Below, piece after piece: positions 49,979 to 58,235 of a stretch of DNA of 64,000 bases (position 1 is its first letter; each line of letters starts with the position of its first letter). The stretch lies in the NCBI RefSeq assembly GCF_054482525.1, contig NZ_CM137006.1; one strand, written 5' to 3'. The position numbers and the translations under genes were made by a program. Below the pieces are notes generated by a model. The model was not told where the DNA came from and made no database searches. It saw nothing but the letters and a program-made list of their open reading frames with translations.

Positions 49979-50287
49979 TCACCCACGATTAACCAACAGC
50001 CAGACCAGCAGACACGCCACCACCGGCACAGCAAAATCCATCAGGCTTGCCACATCCCATGCACGTGTATCAAAACCGCCCCACCACGGCATATTCATTC
50101 GCTTGCCATGCCCGAACATTTCGATCCAGCGATATTCTGCCTGGGTGTGTTCACGCGCAATGAAGAACGTACAACCGGCTATCGCCCCGTAAGCCCAGTT
50201 CCCGGTAAAAAGACCAATCAGTAGCTGCGCAGCCACAGCACAAAGCGCATGAAGGAAAGGTGTTATATCCATTTTCATCCTACCCAA
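49979..50287 (-). CDS. Hypothetical small membrane protein (prophage)
   Basis: 102 aa ORF with two hydrophobic segments; family not recognised. Confidence 0.4.
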   Translation of the reverse strand: MGRMKMDITPFLHALCAVAAQLLIGLFTGNWAYGAIAGCTFFIAREHTQAEYRWIEMFGHGKRMNMPWWGGFDTRAWDVASLMDFAVPVVACLLVWLLVNRG

Positions 50288-50314
50288 TAAAACGGGGCGC
50301 TCGGCCCCTTAATA

Positions 50315-51355
50315 TTATTTAGACGCAAGCGCCGCATCAATTGCAGATAATCTTTGTCTTAATTCTGCGTTTTCTTCTTCCAGTGCTGTTATTCTGTCGT
50401 CTGACTCTCTGGCTACCTGAACAAGCAAGCCAGTAACACCAGAATAATCAACTGTGTAATAACGTTCACCTTCTTCACCTTCCGATCCGCTTGCACCGTC
50501 CTGATATTTCATTGCGGAACCTACAACTTCTGGGATTGCTTCCAGAGCTTCCTGTGCAATGACTCCAGCATAGGGCATACCGTTTTCTTTAAGCGTGTAT
50601 GTATAGCCGTTCATTTTACGGATGCGGTCGGTTGCATTATCGATCACCTGAATGTTGTCTTTCAGATCCCGGTCGGAATGCTGGTTAAATGCGGTGGCAT
50701 GACATGCACCATTAACGCTTAACATATAGGTGTTATCGGTATTTTTCTGCGCATAGAACATATAAGCGCCACCATCAGCACCAACTTCATATACAACCGG
50801 ACGGGTAGAGTTACCCCACAAACTAGTAGTAGCGCCAGAATGAGCGGTTCCCTGTGTGTTGATTGTCATGGTTGACCCATGATTGGCATATTTGATTTGT
50901 AATGTGTCTGTGCAGTCAAACTTAATAAGCGCGTTACTTCCCCGCACACCATACGACATGAGACAGTTCCCCATCTTAAGGTAACCATCACTGCCTGGAA
51001 AAATTAATGTTCCGCCGTAAAGATCGCTAAAATCCCAAAAGATACCTTTTGTTCCATTGTGTGTGACAATCCTTGTCATTGTATCTTTTGTACCGTCAAT
51101 ATTTTTTCTGGTGTACATCTCACTATAAGCGTTTTCGGTTTCTCCTGTCTTATTTGACAAGTGAATCTTACCGCTAAATATAGTTCCAGTGGTCGGCAAT
51201 GTCTTTTGATTATAGATTACATTGCAATAACTATTCCATGTTGTTTTATTGTCTACATATGATTTTGTTGCGTAGCTTCCTTGATCGTTTTTTAATTTGC
51301 TAACGTCGGATTTTAGCGTTTTGATATCATCAGGAATTACTGTCGATGTAGCCAT
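50315..51355 (-). CDS. Tail fiber-like protein with C-terminal peptidase S74 intramolecular chaperone domain
   Basis: 346 aa; C-terminal DLKDNIQ...GYTYTLKENG...ALEEENAELRQRLSAIDAAL typical of self-cleaving chaperone domains. Confidence 0.6.
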   Translation of the reverse strand: MATSTVIPDDIKTLKSDVSKLKNDQGSYATKSYVDNKTTWNSYCNVIYNQKTLPTTGTIFSGKIHLSNKTGETENAYSEMYTRKNIDGTKDTMTRIVTHNGTKGIFWDFSDLYGGTLIFPGSDGYLKMGNCLMSYGVRGSNALIKFDCTDTLQIKYANHGSTMTINTQGTAHSGATTSLWGNSTRPVVYEVGADGGAYMFYAQKNTDNTYMLSVNGACHATAFNQHSDRDLKDNIQVIDNATDRIRKMNGYTYTLKENGMPYAGVIAQEALEAIPEVVGSAMKYQDGASGSEGEEGERYYTVDYSGVTGLLVQVARESDDRITALEEENAELRQRLSAIDAALASK

Positions 51356-51364
51356 TTTTCTTCC

Positions 51365-51646
51365 TCACATCCAGCCACGAAGTTGATGCTCAACAGCAAC
51401 CGCGTATTCATCGAATAATGACGATATTTGCGAATCATTAATGATGCGCACGTTTACAAAATATCCGTCCTCCTTAACACATACCGGCTCGCCATCTTCA
51501 GTAAGTTCTCCGGTTTCTTTGTACACATTACCTATCACGTCAATAAGAATATCATCCTGCATCGACTCGTCATCATAATAGCCAATACTCTCCATAAAGG
51601 CCGAAAAGTCGGCCCTGTCGGCAAATTTGAGTGTTAAATCTTTCAT
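51365..51646 (-). CDS. Hypothetical acidic protein (prophage tail fiber region)
   Basis: 93 aa; start overlaps upstream stop (TAATG). Confidence 0.45.
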   Translation of the reverse strand: MKDLTLKFADRADFSAFMESIGYYDDESMQDDILIDVIGNVYKETGELTEDGEPVCVKEDGYFVNVRIINDSQISSLFDEYAVAVEHQLRGWM

Positions 51647-52263
51647 TAGATTGACTCCCCCATCTGAGCATCAGTCAATGCCTTGTGCCATATTCTGAAA
51701 TTCCTGACATGACCAAATAAATGACGCAACCCGGCTGTAGTCTGGCCTCCAATACGGATAATTGCGGTGTTCTGAATATAGGACCATGTGGCTTTCTTTT
51801 CGCTGGATATACGCCCGTTACTTACTGAGCACGTAGACTGATCTGACTTTACACGCATCCCCATAACCATTTTTTCAAGCGATGCGTTTTCGTTTACCCG
51901 TCTGTTAGCCAAACCTATATCGCAATAAGGAAATCCGTCGTAATCTGTTGAACGACCGAAGCCAAGAATAATAGCCGCTCCGGTTTGATGACCGCCGGTA
52001 TCAAAAACACGCGGTGCTGCATTTGGCGTTTTATACCAGTTCTTATGTACCTCACAAAGAACTGTAAAAGGAAGATTATAAAGGTTATTCTTGATTGAGA
52101 CTGTCACCATATCGCTTGCGCGAGTGCTTGCAATTATATCAGTTACAATAAATGACGAAGCACTTGATCCACCTTCCACTTGTGGAGTTGCGATATCCAG
52201 ATAGTCTCCAGATGCTGTGCCTGAACCTTTTACTGGAGCATATTGAACCATCGCACCAATCAT
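51646..52263 (-). CDS. Tail fiber distal segment, in frame with stf beyond an amber codon
   Basis: 205 aa ORF in same frame as stf, separated by TAG and 14 sense codons. Confidence 0.5.
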   Translation of the reverse strand: MIGAMVQYAPVKGSGTASGDYLDIATPQVEGGSSASSFIVTDIIASTRASDMVTVSIKNNLYNLPFTVLCEVHKNWYKTPNAAPRVFDTGGHQTGAAIILGFGRSTDYDGFPYCDIGLANRRVNENASLEKMVMGMRVKSDQSTCSVSNGRISSEKKATWSYIQNTAIIRIGGQTTAGLRHLFGHVRNFRIWHKALTDAQMGESI

Positions 52264-52305
52264 GCTCTCTGTATCTAGTGCATTAATTGTAGCCTGATAG
52301 AAAAT

Positions 52306-54030
52306 CTAACCAGTAGCCTCATCTTTTACAGCCTTTGCAATAATACGATTTGCTGCACCACCAGTCTTATCAATTACAAGTGTTGATAAATTGAGGTAAG
52401 CATCTCCCAAAAAAGTGTAAGTAGAACCATCATGATGTTCAAATCTTAAACGACACCTTATATTTTCAACATCACTTCTGACACGGCATGAAATGGTCAC
52501 ATATTTTTCATCACCTGTGACATCAAATCCTTTACTGCCAGAAACCGTTACGATATTAATCGCACTTGTCTGATCAATAAGAGTATCTTTTACAGTAAAT
52601 CTCCCATAAGTAAAATTAAAAGAATCCGTGGATATTTCTGTGAGTTCCAGATTGCCTGACTTATTCCATTTAGATGGATTTGTTGAATTAAGCAGAAGAT
52701 TAGTTCTTTGCCCCTCAATAAGCAGGCCATCACGTTCAAATCGCGGCTCGTCAATGGCAGCCTCTGTCAGTACACCAGATTTATTAATATAGGTTGCTTT
52801 CGATGCGCGTTTAAACTTAACAACCTTGTCACCAGGCATCGTTATTTCATCATCACCAATAACAATCTTTTTATATGATGGCGAAAAGCCCGTAATCATA
52901 TCCAGTGAATCGTTAAACGGTATCCACACATCGGGAAGCGGCTGCAAAACTTGTTTATACGGCTCCGCAGCCTGGCTTGCATACTCTCTGGCTGCGTCTT
53001 CACTTGCTTTTGCAGCCGTCTGGCTTGCAGCGGATGCTTTCGCCGAGTTAGCCGCCGCAGTCTCGCTCGCCTTTGCGTTGGTTTCACTGGTTTTTGCAGC
53101 TTTTTGACTGTTGGCTGATGCAGTGGCAGAAGAAGCCGCCGCACTTGCAGAACCAGCTGCGGCACTCTCGCTTTGGGCTGCAGCATCCTGACTGTTTTTC
53201 GCCGCAGTTTCACTGGCTTTGGCATTCGTTTCGCTGGTCTTCGCTGCCGTCTGGCTGGACTTTGCGTTAGTTTCACTCGTCTTCGCAGCTTTCTGGCTGT
53301 TAGCCGCAGCAGTTGCTGATCCAGCTGCTGAAGTCGCAGAACCGGCTGCCGCGCTCTCGTTTTGGGCTGCTGCAACCTGGCTGTTTTTTGCCGCAGTTTC
53401 ACTGGCTTTGGCATTCGTTTCGCTGGTCTTCGCTGCCGTCTGGCTGGACTTTGCGTTGGTTTCGCTCGTCTTTGCGGCTGTCTCGCTATTTTTCGCGTTG
53501 GTTTCTGATTTTTTGGCTGCTGCCGCGGAGTTTGCTGATGCAGTCTGTGAGGTCGCTGCCGCCTGTGCACTATTAGCTGCATTCGTTTCTGAGGTTTTCG
53601 CCGCGTTCTTCGATGATGCCGCTGCAGTTTCGGATTTCTTTGCCGCCGCTGCGCTCTGAGAGGCGGCTTCAGCGTTGCGTGCCGCTTCTTCCACCATTTC
53701 CTCAAAACGACGCAATGCCTCCGGCATGACATCATCTTCCGTCATGGCACCGAGAAAATCATTCAGCGTACCTGGTCTGGAACCTTCATAGACGGTAATG
53801 GTCCCGGCATGCGAAGGCGGAAAACCTTCAACCAGCAGGGTGACGCTGTACTGGCCATACTCAACATCCATGCTGTAACGCCCGGCTTCATCAGGATTTT
53901 CAGAGGCCACCGTGTTCACCAGTACCGTGGTGCTGTTACGCTTTGCCTTCAGTTGAATAGTGCAGTTCTGTATTGGTTTTCCCGCACCATCTTTCAGCAC
54001 ACCTGAGATTTTTACTGCTGCCATATCCAC
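52306..54030 (-). CDS. stf: Side tail fiber protein Stf (N-terminal and shaft portion)
   Basis: N-terminus MAAVKISGVLKDGAGKPIQNCTIQLKAKRNSTT matches lambda Stf; Ala/Ser/Thr-rich repeats; ends at TAG 52306-52308. Confidence 0.85.
   Translation of the reverse strand: MDMAAVKISGVLKDGAGKPIQNCTIQLKAKRNSTTVLVNTVASENPDEAGRYSMDVEYGQYSVTLLVEGFPPSHAGTITVYEGSRPGTLNDFLGAMTEDDVMPEALRRFEEMVEEAARNAEAASQSAAAAKKSETAAASSKNAAKTSETNAANSAQAAATSQTASANSAAAAKKSETNAKNSETAAKTSETNAKSSQTAAKTSETNAKASETAAKNSQVAAAQNESAAAGSATSAAGSATAAANSQKAAKTSETNAKSSQTAAKTSETNAKASETAAKNSQDAAAQSESAAAGSASAAASSATASANSQKAAKTSETNAKASETAAANSAKASAASQTAAKASEDAAREYASQAAEPYKQVLQPLPDVWIPFNDSLDMITGFSPSYKKIVIGDDEITMPGDKVVKFKRASKATYINKSGVLTEAAIDEPRFERDGLLIEGQRTNLLLNSTNPSKWNKSGNLELTEISTDSFNFTYGRFTVKDTLIDQTSAINIVTVSGSKGFDVTGDEKYVTISCRVRSDVENIRCRLRFEHHDGSTYTFLGDAYLNLSTLVIDKTGGAANRIIAKAVKDEATG
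53201..53578 (-). repeat. Tandem 189 bp duplication inside stf
   Basis: Near-identical 63-codon units starting at 53201 and 53390. Confidence 0.8.
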
Positions 54031-54088
54031 TCCACAAAAAAGCCCGCCTGAACCGGCGGGCTGTCATAACACTGTGTTACCTGGCTAA

Positions 54089-54688
54089 TCAGAATTTATA
54101 ACCGACACCCACGATGAAACCGTCAGTGCGCCAGTCACCACTGCCGGAACCTTCATAAGCAAGGTCAATGGCCACGGATTCGGTCGGGTTAAACTGCACG
54201 CCAGCCCCCCACGCCAGAGACGTGTTGCTGTGGCGACCGTCATCACTTCCGGTCAGCACATCGTGCGTTTTCCCCTTGTTGTCAGTTACGCGGAGATAAT
54301 CCCCGGAGAAGGTCGACACACGGCTGTAAGCCATACCCGCCATCGCATAAGCACTGAACCATTCATTCACGCGTACAGATGGCCCCGCCATCATGCTGAA
54401 CCAGCGGTTACACACTGAATCTTCATGCCAGCGGGTATCGCTGTAATGCGTTTTTTGCTCATCTTTGGCATTGGCATAACTGAATGACGTCACCAGCCCC
54501 AGCGTGTCCGTAAATTCATAACGGTATTTCACGTTAATGCCCTTCAGGTCATCACTGCCTGGCATATCAGTATGGGTCTGAAGATACCCGGCGCTTAGTG
54601 TGGACTGATGCTCTGCTGCGCTCGCTGGCGTACCAGCGGCAACCAGCCAGACTACTGCGGACAGAATAACAGCACATAATTTACGCAT
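54089..54688 (-). CDS. lom: Outer membrane protein Lom (Ail/Lom family)
   Basis: 199 aa, signal peptide, C-terminal GYKF; between J and stf as in lambda. Confidence 0.85.
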   Translation of the reverse strand: MRKLCAVILSAVVWLVAAGTPASAAEHQSTLSAGYLQTHTDMPGSDDLKGINVKYRYEFTDTLGLVTSFSYANAKDEQKTHYSDTRWHEDSVCNRWFSMMAGPSVRVNEWFSAYAMAGMAYSRVSTFSGDYLRVTDNKGKTHDVLTGSDDGRHSNTSLAWGAGVQFNPTESVAIDLAYEGSGSGDWRTDGFIVGVGYKF

Positions 54689-54755: not shown

Positions 54756-57700
54756 TCAGCTGATACTGATGCCTGCGGTGGCTTTCTTCATCACCACAAC
54801 CAGCAAATCGCTGATACTTGCTGTGGGATACCAGTCATTTACCAGCCATGCTGACACCGAAAACTCCAGCGTCATGTGACCGTGACCGGCAGGCATATCA
54901 ATAACGCCACTGTAAATCAGCGTATTATCCAGCGCGGTACGGTTATAAATTTCAGCACCGTTTTTCCGCACTATCAGACGGCATGAGGAGTAAATATCAG
55001 TATGCTCTCTCTCATGTTTAGCGCCGCTGAATGCCACCGCCGGAATAACAATCTGCCGGTCAAACGGCTGATCGTCATAAACCCTGACGGTAATGGTCCC
55101 TGATGGCCACCGTTCCGGTGCACGGGAGTCCCGGGGGAAAGCTTTGCCCACTGTTTTAACGAGATCGCCTTCAATCTGGTTCGCGGACAGTTTTCCCAGA
55201 ACCCGGCAGTTCTCGTTAATCGTGACGTTGTTGAGCGTCCCGGAGTTCGCATTCACGTTACCGCTGATATCGGCATTTTTCGCCGTCAGCCGCCCGTCCG
55301 GTGTCAGGGAAAATGCCGGAGGATTACCGCCGCTGGTAATGGTGGGAGCCGTCAGATATTTCAGGAACACTTCGTTCATGAATATCTGATCGCCCTGACC
55401 AACAAACATCGGCTTTGTGTTGCCATTCGCAGGATTAACCATCGCAATCCTGTCCGCCGCCAGCAGCACCTGACTCTGCATGCCGTCAGGGGTGTTCTCA
55501 ATACCGGCACCAATACCCGCGATATAAAGGCGTCCGTCCTGCATCTGCTGCAGCTTCACAGCCCACATGCTGTTCAGGTTATTATTTGTATCAACCTGAA
55601 CCTTCTGTATCTGCTGAATTGCCGCACTCTGGTCTTCCAGTTTCTTATTGACGGTCTGCGTGATTTCATTGCTGACATCCGTAATGGACGTCCTGATTTC
55701 AGCCAGGTCAGGCGCAAGCTGACCGTTATCAATCTGCGTCCACAGCTCCTGAGCCAGATGGCTTTTCCCTATCTCGCCTTTGAAAAAATCCAGATAGCCG
55801 GATGCATCATCACTCGGCTGGCCAACAGCCTCCACAAATGCCGATTTGCCAACGGTGTTCACACTGCGGATGTAAAAATAATAATCATGGCCCGGTTTGA
55901 TATTGATACTGGCGGCTATCCAGTACAGCGCCGTGCCAAGATAGCGGGCTGTGGTTTCAACCTGCCTGATATCGGTAATCCGCGTTTCCGAGAACCAGAA
56001 CTCAAACTGTACCGTCGGATCATAAACCGCAAGATGCGGCGTGGCAGTTATCTGAAAATAGCCCGGCGTCAGCTCAATCCGCGACGGCGCTGCCGGTGCG
56101 GCAATCCGGAACGATACCGATGCCGGATCGCCCTGCTGTCCCCACGCATTTACCGCCCGGACCGTCAGCGTGTAACGCCCCAGCGCCAGTTGCCTGAAGC
56201 GGTATGTGGTTTCCGTCGTCCTGGCCGTGCTGACCAGCCGCTCACTGCCGTCGTCCGCTGCCACGGTCAGGCGAAGCAGGAAGCTCACGCCCTTCACCAC
56301 CTTCGGCGTGTCCCAGCGGGCCAGTACCTGATACTCCCCGCTGTCTGCAGTGACTTCGGCAGTCAGGTGCTGCACCGCTGGCGGCGTGACACCATTCACC
56401 GTGCCGCTCTGGTCACCGTCAAAGTGCGCCCCGTTATCCACGATGGCTTCTTTCTCCGGTACATGCTGCACGGCAGTGATGGCATACGTGCCGTCGTCGT
56501 TCTCACGGATACTCACACAGCGGAACAGTCGCTGACGCAGCGTCGGCAGCTTCAGCCCCCATACGCTGTATTCAGCAACACCGTCAGGAACACGGCTCAC
56601 TTTTACCTTCACGCCGTCGGTGACGGACTGAACCTCCACGCTGACCGGATTGCCACTTCCGTCAACCAGGCTTATCAGCGTGGTACCGGAGGATGGCAGC
56701 GTGATTTCACGGTCGAGCGTCAGCGTCCGGGTCTGGCTGTTTACCGCCAGCACGCGCCCGCCGGTGCTGATACCGGCATAGTCATCATCGCAGATTTCAA
56801 TGACATCGCCCGGTACATGGCGAAGCCCTTCTGCACCCACGCTGAAGTCCACGGTCTGCGTTTCCAGCAGTTCCGTTTTAATCAGCCACAGCCCGGCGCG
56901 GTGCGCCTGCCCCCGGCTGGTACAGCCAAAGGCATCCATCTTCGTGACATTACGACCGTAACGGGCAATGGCCTGCGTATCTTCAACAAGCTCTGTCGCC
57001 GTCTCCCAGCCGTTGTTCGGGTCAATCCAGTTCACCTCAACGGCATTATGGCGGTCCTTCAGGGCGCTGAAGCTGTAGCGGAACGGCGCGCCATCATCCG
57101 GCATCACCACATTACTGCGGTTATAGGTCCACACCTTATCTGATGGTCGGTCCTGCACGAACGTCAGCGTCTGCCCGTTCCATACCGGCATACAGCGCAT
57201 CGCCGAGCAGAAATCACTGAGCACATCCCACGCCTTACGCTGCGTGGTCAGGTAGGCATTACAGGTGATGCGCGGCTCCGTGCCGCCAAAACCGTCCGGC
57301 ACTGACTGGTCGCAGTACTGGCCGATGACATACAGCGCCCATTTATCCACATCCGCCGCACAAAGACGTTTCCCCATGCCGTAGCGCGGGTGGGTCAGCA
57401 TATCCCACAGACACCAGGCCGGGTTGTTGCTGTATGCCGGCTTAAACGTTCCGTCCCAGATACCGCTGTATTGCCGCGTCTGCGGGTTATAGTTCGACGG
57501 CACCTGCAGAATGCGCCCGCGAAGATGATAATTACGGCTCACCTGCTGGCTGCCGAACTGCTCCGAGTCCACCTGCACGCCGACCAGTGCCGTGTTCGGG
57601 TAGCACTGTTTCACATCGATGATTTCGGTGTATGACGACCAGAGCGTTTTGTTCTGCAGCTGGTCTGTGGTGCTGTCCGGCGTCATCCTGCGCATCCGGA

Positions 57701-58235
57701 TATTAAACGGGCGCGGCGGCAGGCTACCCACCACCACCGAGGCCAGATACTGCGAGGTGGTTTTGCCCTTAATGGTGATGTCTTTTTCCGTCACCCAGCC
57801 ACCGTTACGTTGTATCTGAACCAGCAGACGGACTTCCGACGGATTCCTGTCCCCCTTTGAGGTGGTTTCCACCAGTGCCTGTACACCGAAGGTAAAGCGC
57901 AGACGGTCGATGTTTGCAGACGTAATGGTGCGGGTGATCGGCGTGTCATATTTCACTTCCGTACCCAGCACCGTCTCGGAGCCGGAGGATTCAAACCCCT
58001 CCGGCGGTGTCTGCTCCTGCTCACCGGCACGGAACACCACCGTGACACCGGAGATGTTGGTATTCCCCTCAGTGTCCAGCACCGGCGTACTGTTCAGCAG
58101 CACGCTTTTTAATCCATCCACCGGACCTTCAACCGGCCCTTCGCTGATGGCATCGATCACACTCAGCAACTGCGTGGACTTCAGGTTGTCCTTCGCTTCG
58201 CGCGGGGTATGCCCCTTACTGCTTCCTTTACCCAT
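54756..58235 (-). CDS. J: Tail tip host specificity protein J
   Basis: 1159 aa, lambda gpJ-like along its length. Confidence 0.9.

Follow-up and report, generated by a model that had tools for sequence, protein, structure and literature searches.

The region distal to the side tail fibre gene stf was analysed in a window of 64,000 nucleotides from contig NZ_CM137006.1 (NCBI RefSeq assembly GCF_054482525.1), a piece of E. coli chromosome in which a lambdoid prophage occupies the DLP12 position. The three open reading frames (ORFs) beyond stf, which an earlier note on this DNA had listed as coding for 93, 346 and 102 amino acids (aa), were recovered on the minus strand with those positions and lengths (Table 1). 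The results indicate, with a probability of about 0.68, that they make up the distal portion of a side tail fibre cassette with two components, in a DLP12-type lambdoid prophage, Stf being the proximal fibre and the 346-aa protein the distal receptor binder. In the proposed arrangement, Stf would be anchored to the tail tip by its lambda-type N-terminus, and the 346-aa protein would serve as an exchangeable receptor-binding fibre whose trimerisation is aided by an S74 chaperone at its own C-terminus. After correct folding, this chaperone would cleave itself off before Ser227, with Lys232 as the general base, leaving a mature subunit of 226 residues. The conserved N-terminal ~30 residues of this subunit would dock on the C-terminal module of Stf, while residues 31-110 would contact a surface receptor that varies, a glycan such as O-antigen being the most likely candidate. 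The 93-aa protein, translationally coupled to stf, would aid assembly of the Stf module, in which a chaperone domain is lacking, and may remain as a connector; the small membrane protein, present in temperate versions only, would be an accessory expressed in the lysogen. The cassette is common and ordinary, and a description of its architecture already exists for homologous T5-like genes. One in-frame amber codon makes stf a pseudogene in this genome.

The assignment of the 346-aa protein was based on profile matches and on its catalytic residues. Pfam PF13884 (Peptidase_S74) was matched at residues 227-278 with E=6.4e-14; the score was 52.4 bits, where the cut-off is 22, and the match spans profile positions 1-57 of 58. 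The protein also matched PHROG 4563 'tail fiber protein' from end to end (E=6e-208) and the LtfB family PHROG 6921 (E=8.5e-20). Ser227 and Lys232 lie in the motif SDRDLK, which aligns with SSDRRIK of S16 gp37; both are invariant in the homologue alignment from six phage lineages and, in a broader set of 36 homologues, conserved to at least 90%. Their spacing equals that of the scissile Ser1264 and Lys1269 defined experimentally in T5 pb1 (PMC4690869), and it is by analogy with this pair that the 346-aa protein would cleave itself. The S74-like C-terminus and the Ser-Lys dyad expected in the earlier note were thus both found, and since neither the S74 and fibre matches nor the dyad is lacking, the S74 assignment stands. 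The size given there for the mature fibre, ~210 aa, does not hold, as a cut before Ser227 would instead leave 226 aa (24.8 kDa). Comparison of the family profile with PDB gave the chaperone domain of S16 gp37 (6F45, E=4e-13) and the ICA domain of MYRF (7DC3, 1e-7), and for residues about 175-220 the T4 gp34 shaft motif (4UXE, 3e-5). The S74 domain shows the fold of such a chaperone, with a mixed alpha/beta part that leads into a long coiled-coil helix at the C-terminus, and the region before the predicted cleavage site is similar to motifs from the fibre shaft and tip in T4 gp34 and T5 pb1. Proteins identical to the 346-aa protein are already held in RefSeq as "tail fiber domain-containing protein".

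The distribution of variability along the 346-aa protein was obtained by an entropy scan of 18 distinct sequences of its type. Residues 31-110 showed 0.5-1.0 bits per position against 0.1-0.2 in the flanks, smaller variable patches were seen at residues 171-225, and residues 1-30 and the chaperone were nearly constant. At least three allelic versions of the 31-110 segment exist, and the structure model reaches a predicted local distance difference test score (pLDDT) of about 82 for residues 51-100. This beta-rich segment is likely to be the receptor-contact region, judging from its pattern of variation. Residues 1-30 have the lowest entropy of the mature protein and form a helix at residues 9-29 in the structure model; nine of the first 15 residues (M1, T3, T5, I7, P8, D10, I11, L14 and K15) are invariant in six phage lineages.

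Exchange of the fibre was also visible among prophages. In the IMG/VR set, 80 prophage loci carrying the 93-aa gene were collected, and in all of them the following gene starts with MA(T/I)STVIP where sequence was available. Behind this shared N-terminus two fibre alleles were found, one of 346 aa and one of about 234 aa; the short allele (~225-234 aa) is also an S74 protein (E=4.7e-6). The two alleles, together with the hypervariable residues 31-110, bear out the earlier suggestion of a mosaic host-range region. Further IMG/VR scans seeded with T5-like and T1-like homologues gave five loci only. Of 5426 complete E. coli genomes, 4388 have a match to some part of the 2.7-kb region. In two other E. 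coli lysogens (loci L107 and L106) the 346-aa gene is disrupted, either through an insertion sequence element whose transposase has an rve domain or through a frameshift, so the cassette decays repeatedly in prophages.

The synteny comparison revealed the same order of modules in the lambdoid relatives and beyond. The trio consists of a fibre with a ~430-aa lectin-like end, a ~92-aa protein, and a fibre that starts with MxTxTxIPxDIxxLK and ends in S74. It was found in the lambdoid phages Tritos and 2G7b and many prophages, in the T5-like phages vB_Si_CECAV_FGS017 and IrisVonRoten, in the T1-like phages swan01 and KarlJaspers, and in Nonagvirus JenP1. A distant prophage (L094) has the order J, 565 aa, 100 aa and a 332-aa S74 protein, its small protein being ~30% identical to the 93-aa protein. 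In the first fibre the N-terminal anchor is specific to the lineage and the last ~430 residues are conserved, and the middle part of the S74 fibre is nearly absent at one extreme and reaches about 430 residues at the other. Between lineages, identity is 74-98% over the first 95 residues of the Stf C-terminal module and only 39-54% for the ~92-aa protein; in the distant prophage the module start (44%) and the distal N-terminus (15%) have both diverged. Over the seven lineages compared, the conserved module start and the near-invariant distal 15-mer, with a faster-evolving 92-aa protein, therefore fit a contact between the distal N-terminus and the module start, on which the fibre would dock. 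The earlier idea that the short fibre may attach to another fibre protein is supported on comparative grounds, as the 15-mer, the ~92-aa gene and the ~430-aa module occur together in four siphovirus lineages with differing anchors, and by the published prediction of a T5-like proximal and distal pair (PMC11990801).

Traces of exchange between these phages were located at gene borders, so the parts of the cassette are evidently interchangeable. In the T5-like Salmonella phage FGS017 (L003, 4704-7318) the Stf module is 92-98% identical to that of the prophage, with ~90% identity in the DNA, whereas the 92-aa protein is only 42% identical; together this indicates a recent exchange with its joint at the gene border. 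For JenP1, similarity at the DNA level is limited to the distal fibre gene.

The closest described system is that of IrisVonRoten (Bas32), for which AlphaFold-Multimer models place the distal fibre Gp24 on the proximal Gp22 with its galectin-like C-terminus (PMC11990801). Its Gp22, Gp23 and Gp24 are homologous to the stf, 93-aa and 346-aa genes and stand in the same order. The ~430-aa module of the proximal fibre is 62-77% identical and the 92-aa protein 38-39%; the distal fibre shares the MxTxTxIPxDIxxLK start, a homologous T5-like domain and the S74 chaperone. Accordingly, the ~430-aa module (cut here by the amber codon), the overlapping ~92-aa gene, and the N-terminal motif with an S74 C-terminus were all found in the window, but not a T-shaped distal fibre with a Gp12-like receptor-binding domain 1 (RBD1) and a T5-like RBD2. 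In the alignment the ~230-residue Gp12-like RBD1 of Gp24 is absent from the 346-aa protein, which would therefore be a plain short fibre and not T-shaped like Gp24. The proximal anchor is of the T5 Ltf type in IrisVonRoten and of the lambda Stf type here, and a membrane-protein gene is added in the temperate version only.

Other known fibres agree in part. The branched two-protein fibre LtfA/LtfB of phage DT57C has been shown genetically (PMC4728585; see also PMC10713586): its second fibre, LtfB, is attached via the first, ends in S74 and sets O-antigen specificity. However, LtfA has an S74 domain of its own and binds LtfB through a mid-fibre region like phiEco32 gp14 (PMC4728585), whereas Stf ends in a lectin-like module and no S74 domain was found by Pfam in either stf ORF. 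Also, by the numbering gp108/gp107, no gene lies between ltfA and ltfB. With lambda Stf-Tfa the cassette shares the phage_tail_N N-terminus, the position after J and lom, and a small gene translationally coupled to the fibre gene; it differs in that the C-terminal receptor domain and Tfa are replaced, a 39-aa Tfa remnant being left downstream. The K1F endosialidase, T5 pb1, GA-1 gp12 and S16 gp37 have the C-terminal S74 domain, the Ser/Lys dyad and the long trimerising helix in common with the 346-aa protein, but they are single long proteins anchored directly to the virion, whereas the 346-aa protein would have a mature fragment of 226 residues with a docking segment of only ~30.

The proximal fibre itself was examined in the same way. 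Stf is composed of a lambda-type phage_tail_N anchor (Pfam, E=4e-67), an Ala/Ser-rich repeat shaft and a lectin-like C-terminal module of ~430 aa that begins at QPLPDVWIPFNDSL. From there to the C-terminus the cross-lineage alignment revealed long invariant runs, and weak matches to Laminin_G_3 and GTA_spike_fiber were obtained. The gene is a single reading frame with one stop codon inside, which splits it into ORFs of 574 and 205 aa covering positions 1-570 and 586-793 of PHROG 1419 respectively. Strain MS8345 and phage Tritos have an uninterrupted Stf of 792 aa. The amber TAG stands in the context ACT GGT TAG ATT TTC, where all 27 related loci with the same context have TGG; the change is private to this genome, and the tryptophan at this place (W573 in the module alignment) is invariant across lineages. 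Stf is truncated after residue 574 and loses its last 220 aa, half of the conserved module. The side-fibre apparatus is therefore probably non-functional here, unless the amber codon is suppressed or is a sequencing error.

Within the repeat region at 52826-53735, ORFs of 279, 146 and 93 aa on both strands overlap the Ala/Ser-rich KTSETNAK repeats of stf. They are most likely artefacts of the repeat composition; GC content is about 0.56 and AT skew about -0.5.

The earlier statement that there is no lambda Tfa-like gene is right in part: no intact Tfa (Caudo_TAP) gene was found after the fibre gene, but a C-terminal remnant of 39 aa had been missed. It matches Caudo_TAP with E=2.7e-15 at profile positions 95-130 of 131 (the last 36) and is preceded by a stop codon; PHROG tail-fibre-assembly families are matched as well. 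It corresponds to the end of K-12 tfaX of DLP12, whose product terminates in ...ATEEERSLLEA. The remnant, which lies next to appY, is the scar of an older stf-tfa cassette.

The 93-aa protein is acidic, as had been noted, with an isoelectric point of 4.05 and 21 D+E against 7 K+R. It belongs to PHROG 1361 (function unknown, E=5e-46), and the ATG of its gene overlaps the stf stop as ATGA at 51646; the small gene overlaps the stop of the upstream fibre gene in every case. In lambdoid, T5-like, T1-like, Queuovirinae and rV5-like phages, homologues are found at the corresponding place, and the alignment of the ~92-aa proteins contains 19 invariant positions. The AlphaFold2 model (pLDDT 90) showed a compact alpha/beta fold, for which no significant solved or annotated structural neighbour was found, and no similarity to Tfa was detected in sequence (Pfam) or fold. 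The family is retained in the absence of a following S74 gene in phage 21, in a metagenomic phage (L097) and in the rV5-like myovirus EmilHeitz. In EmilHeitz (L099, 565-5333), a fibre of 1478 aa carries an end module 44% identical to the Stf module, and after it comes a homologue of the 93-aa protein that is 110 aa long. In rV5 (L111, 19206-19814), the end of gp41 is a receptor domain with an S74 chaperone; this end shares 45% identity with residues 151-343 of the 346-aa protein, and no small gene follows. In Vequintavirus the same large fibre thus ends either as a gp41-type tip with S74 or as a Stf-type module with a small protein. Because one locus alternates between a tip with a built-in chaperone and a lectin-like tip plus a small protein, an assembly-helper role is favoured, and the 93-aa protein is, on this comparative evidence, most likely a dedicated accessory of the Stf C-terminal module.

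When the profile of the 92-aa family was compared with 1.84 billion representatives, giant PKD-repeat proteins (P0063, P0075, P0095 and others) were returned with 4-10 matched stretches each. Homology is improbable, as there is no Pfam PKD match and the model is alpha/beta and not an immunoglobulin sandwich; the matches are probably an effect of composition or of repeat summation.

Different explanations of the small protein and of the short fibre were considered. The T4 protein gp35 is the 'knee' connector of its fibre. In a similar manner, and as a serious rival reading, the 93-aa protein could be a virion connector between the Stf module and the distal N-terminus and not a folding helper that departs. 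The order of proximal fibre, small protein and distal fibre, kept in four siphovirus lineages and the distant prophage, would suit a connector, as would the compact and confidently predicted domain and the label 'tail fiber protein' given by the depositors to the IrisVonRoten homologue. Against a connector stand phage 21, EmilHeitz and L097, where the protein is kept although no distal S74 fibre gene follows, and the faster evolution of the family (39-54% identity) than of either proposed partner surface; the Vequintavirus alternation is moreover the pattern expected of a tip and its chaperone.

Attachment of the 346-aa protein directly to the tail tip or the J region, as a separate short fibre independent of Stf, appears improbable. 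Phages with two independent receptor-binding proteins are common (PMC11990801), and the contact with Stf is drawn from comparison. Yet the tail-tip proteins differ among lambdoid, T5-like, T1-like and Queuovirinae phages while the N-terminal 15-mer is nearly invariant and always occurs with the Stf C-terminal module and the 92-aa gene, and in DT57C no density of the second fibre was seen on the tail core (PMC10713586). It is similarly doubtful that the short S74 proteins are caps or chaperones for the Stf tip and do not bind receptors, although the 225-aa KarlJaspers homologue was labelled 'putative lateral tail fiber chaperone' by its depositors, the mature part of the ~225-234-aa allele has only about 115 residues, and the T5-like RBD2's phylogeny is without correlation to host range in the BASEL data. 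In the 346-aa allele there is a hypervariable beta domain of 80 residues, the several versions of which are typical of receptor contact, the part before the predicted cleavage site is similar to the shaft and tip motifs of T4 gp34 and T5 pb1, and the homologous LtfB of DT57C sets host range experimentally (PMC4728585).

Several observations weigh against a distal receptor-binding fibre carried on Stf. The placement of the 346-aa protein on Stf comes from comparison, the models being of single chains, and the 346-aa monomer model is of moderate quality only (mean pLDDT 68, predicted template modelling score 0.31). The low identity of the FGS017 92-aa protein speaks against tight co-evolution of this protein with Stf. 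Phage 21 and EmilHeitz do without a distal fibre, so the Stf module can evidently function alone and may itself be a receptor-binding domain. The terminator-like hairpin before the membrane gene is weak, such sites being no commoner in the region than in shuffled sequence. With stf truncated, nothing in the cassette here may be functional in this strain.

A broader interpretation is put forward tentatively. The start of the Stf module (~95 aa), the ~92-aa protein and the N-terminal 15-mer of the S74 fibre could form a universal plug and socket by which self-chaperoned short receptor-binding fibres are swapped among lambdoid, T1-like, T5-like, Queuovirinae and, in part, rV5-like phages. The 92-aa protein would then be an undescribed class of connector or chaperone, and the membrane protein a lysogen-specific partner, acting for example in envelope protection or receptor modulation.

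The membrane protein was described earlier as having 102 aa; its membrane character was supported by two strongly hydrophobic segments at about residues 5-26 and 75-99, and its likely length is 97-99 aa, translation starting at the ATG at 50278 (99 aa) or at 50272 (97 aa). It belongs to PHROG 1443 (function unknown, E=3e-58), is named 'Ybl63' in one UniRef entry, and is 95% identical to a 'putative membrane protein' of phage 21, where the gene stands directly after the 92-aa gene. No match was obtained in Pfam, NCBIfam, PADLOC or PDB, and no mention of 'Ybl63' was found in the literature. The gene follows the S74 gene in every prophage locus that has room for it, and an identical 97-aa protein follows both fibre alleles at several chromosomal sites (loci L101-L110) and across a very large number of E. 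coli contigs. The virulent versions of the cassette, those of T5-, T1- and Queuovirinae phages, lack the gene. A GC-rich hairpin of 5 bp with GTTTTATT separates the fibre gene from the membrane gene. Since the gene is confined to temperate versions and preceded by this terminator-like hairpin, a lysogen-related accessory is suggested, and the protein is probably expressed in the lysogen and not part of the virion. Since both fibre alleles are accompanied by an identical membrane protein, receptor-specific superinfection exclusion was judged an unlikely role for it.

The E. coli surface types that a temperate phage can reach are determined by its side tail fibres, and the cassette therefore bears on the spread of prophages and on the engineering of lambda-based delivery particles. 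The conserved Stf hub appears to accept exchangeable, self-chaperoned short fibres, so that retargeting would be simple. Both small proteins are conserved across thousands of genomes, the 93-aa family in five phage groups, and as neighbours of the RefSeq S74 protein they carry only the label 'hypothetical protein'. For this genome, the cassette is a standard one in which the amber codon suggests that the side fibres no longer work. The cassette is commoner and better annotated than the earlier note implied; new relative to that note are the private amber codon in stf, which it had missed, the 39-aa Tfa remnant, and the confinement of the membrane gene to temperate versions. Nothing specific on S74 fibres in lambdoid prophages was found in the literature.

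The coordinates of the features are summarized in Table 1.

Table 1. Genes and sequence elements of the side tail fibre region, numbered from the first letter of the window
Feature	Position	Strand	Remark
J	54756-58235	minus	
lom	54089-54688	minus	
stf	51646-54030	minus	putative proximal side tail fibre, 795 codons
Amber codon in stf	52306-52308	minus	
93-aa acidic protein gene	51365-51646	minus	PHROG 1361
346-aa S74 fibre gene	50315-51355	minus	Pfam PF13884, PHROG 4563
Putative N-terminal docking segment, codons 1-30	51266-51355	minus	MATSTVIPDDIKTLK and a short predicted helix
Hypervariable beta-rich domain, codons 31-110	51026-51265	minus	entropy scan
S74 chaperone, codons 227-346	50318-50677	minus	ends in long C-terminal helix
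Ser227 codon	50675-50677	minus	
Lys232 codon	50660-50662	minus	
Terminator-like hairpin	50294-50308	minus	consensus scan
Small membrane protein gene	ORF 49979-50287 (102 aa), likely 49979-50278	minus	PHROG 1443
tfa 3' remnant, 39 aa	49852-49968	minus	Pfam Caudo_TAP
appY	48554-49303	minus	left flank
ompT	47351-48304	plus	left flank

The gene order agrees with tfaX-appY-ompT of K-12 DLP12. This arrangement recurs at ~97% identity in related complete E. coli genomes, and NCBI labels the genes there, from the remnant onwards, as tail fiber assembly protein, hypothetical, tail fiber domain-containing protein, hypothetical and prophage tail fiber N-terminal domain-containing protein. Between lom and stf, at 54041-54062 on the minus strand, there is a strong terminator-like hairpin (8 bp, 7 GC, with a T-run); in phage 21 a terminator is annotated between J and stf, upstream of the latter. 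On the left side of ompT, three ORFs were recognised by eye only: one like an IS200-type transposase (43652-44161), one GNAT-like (45687-46244) and one like an XRE/cupin regulator (46269-46871).

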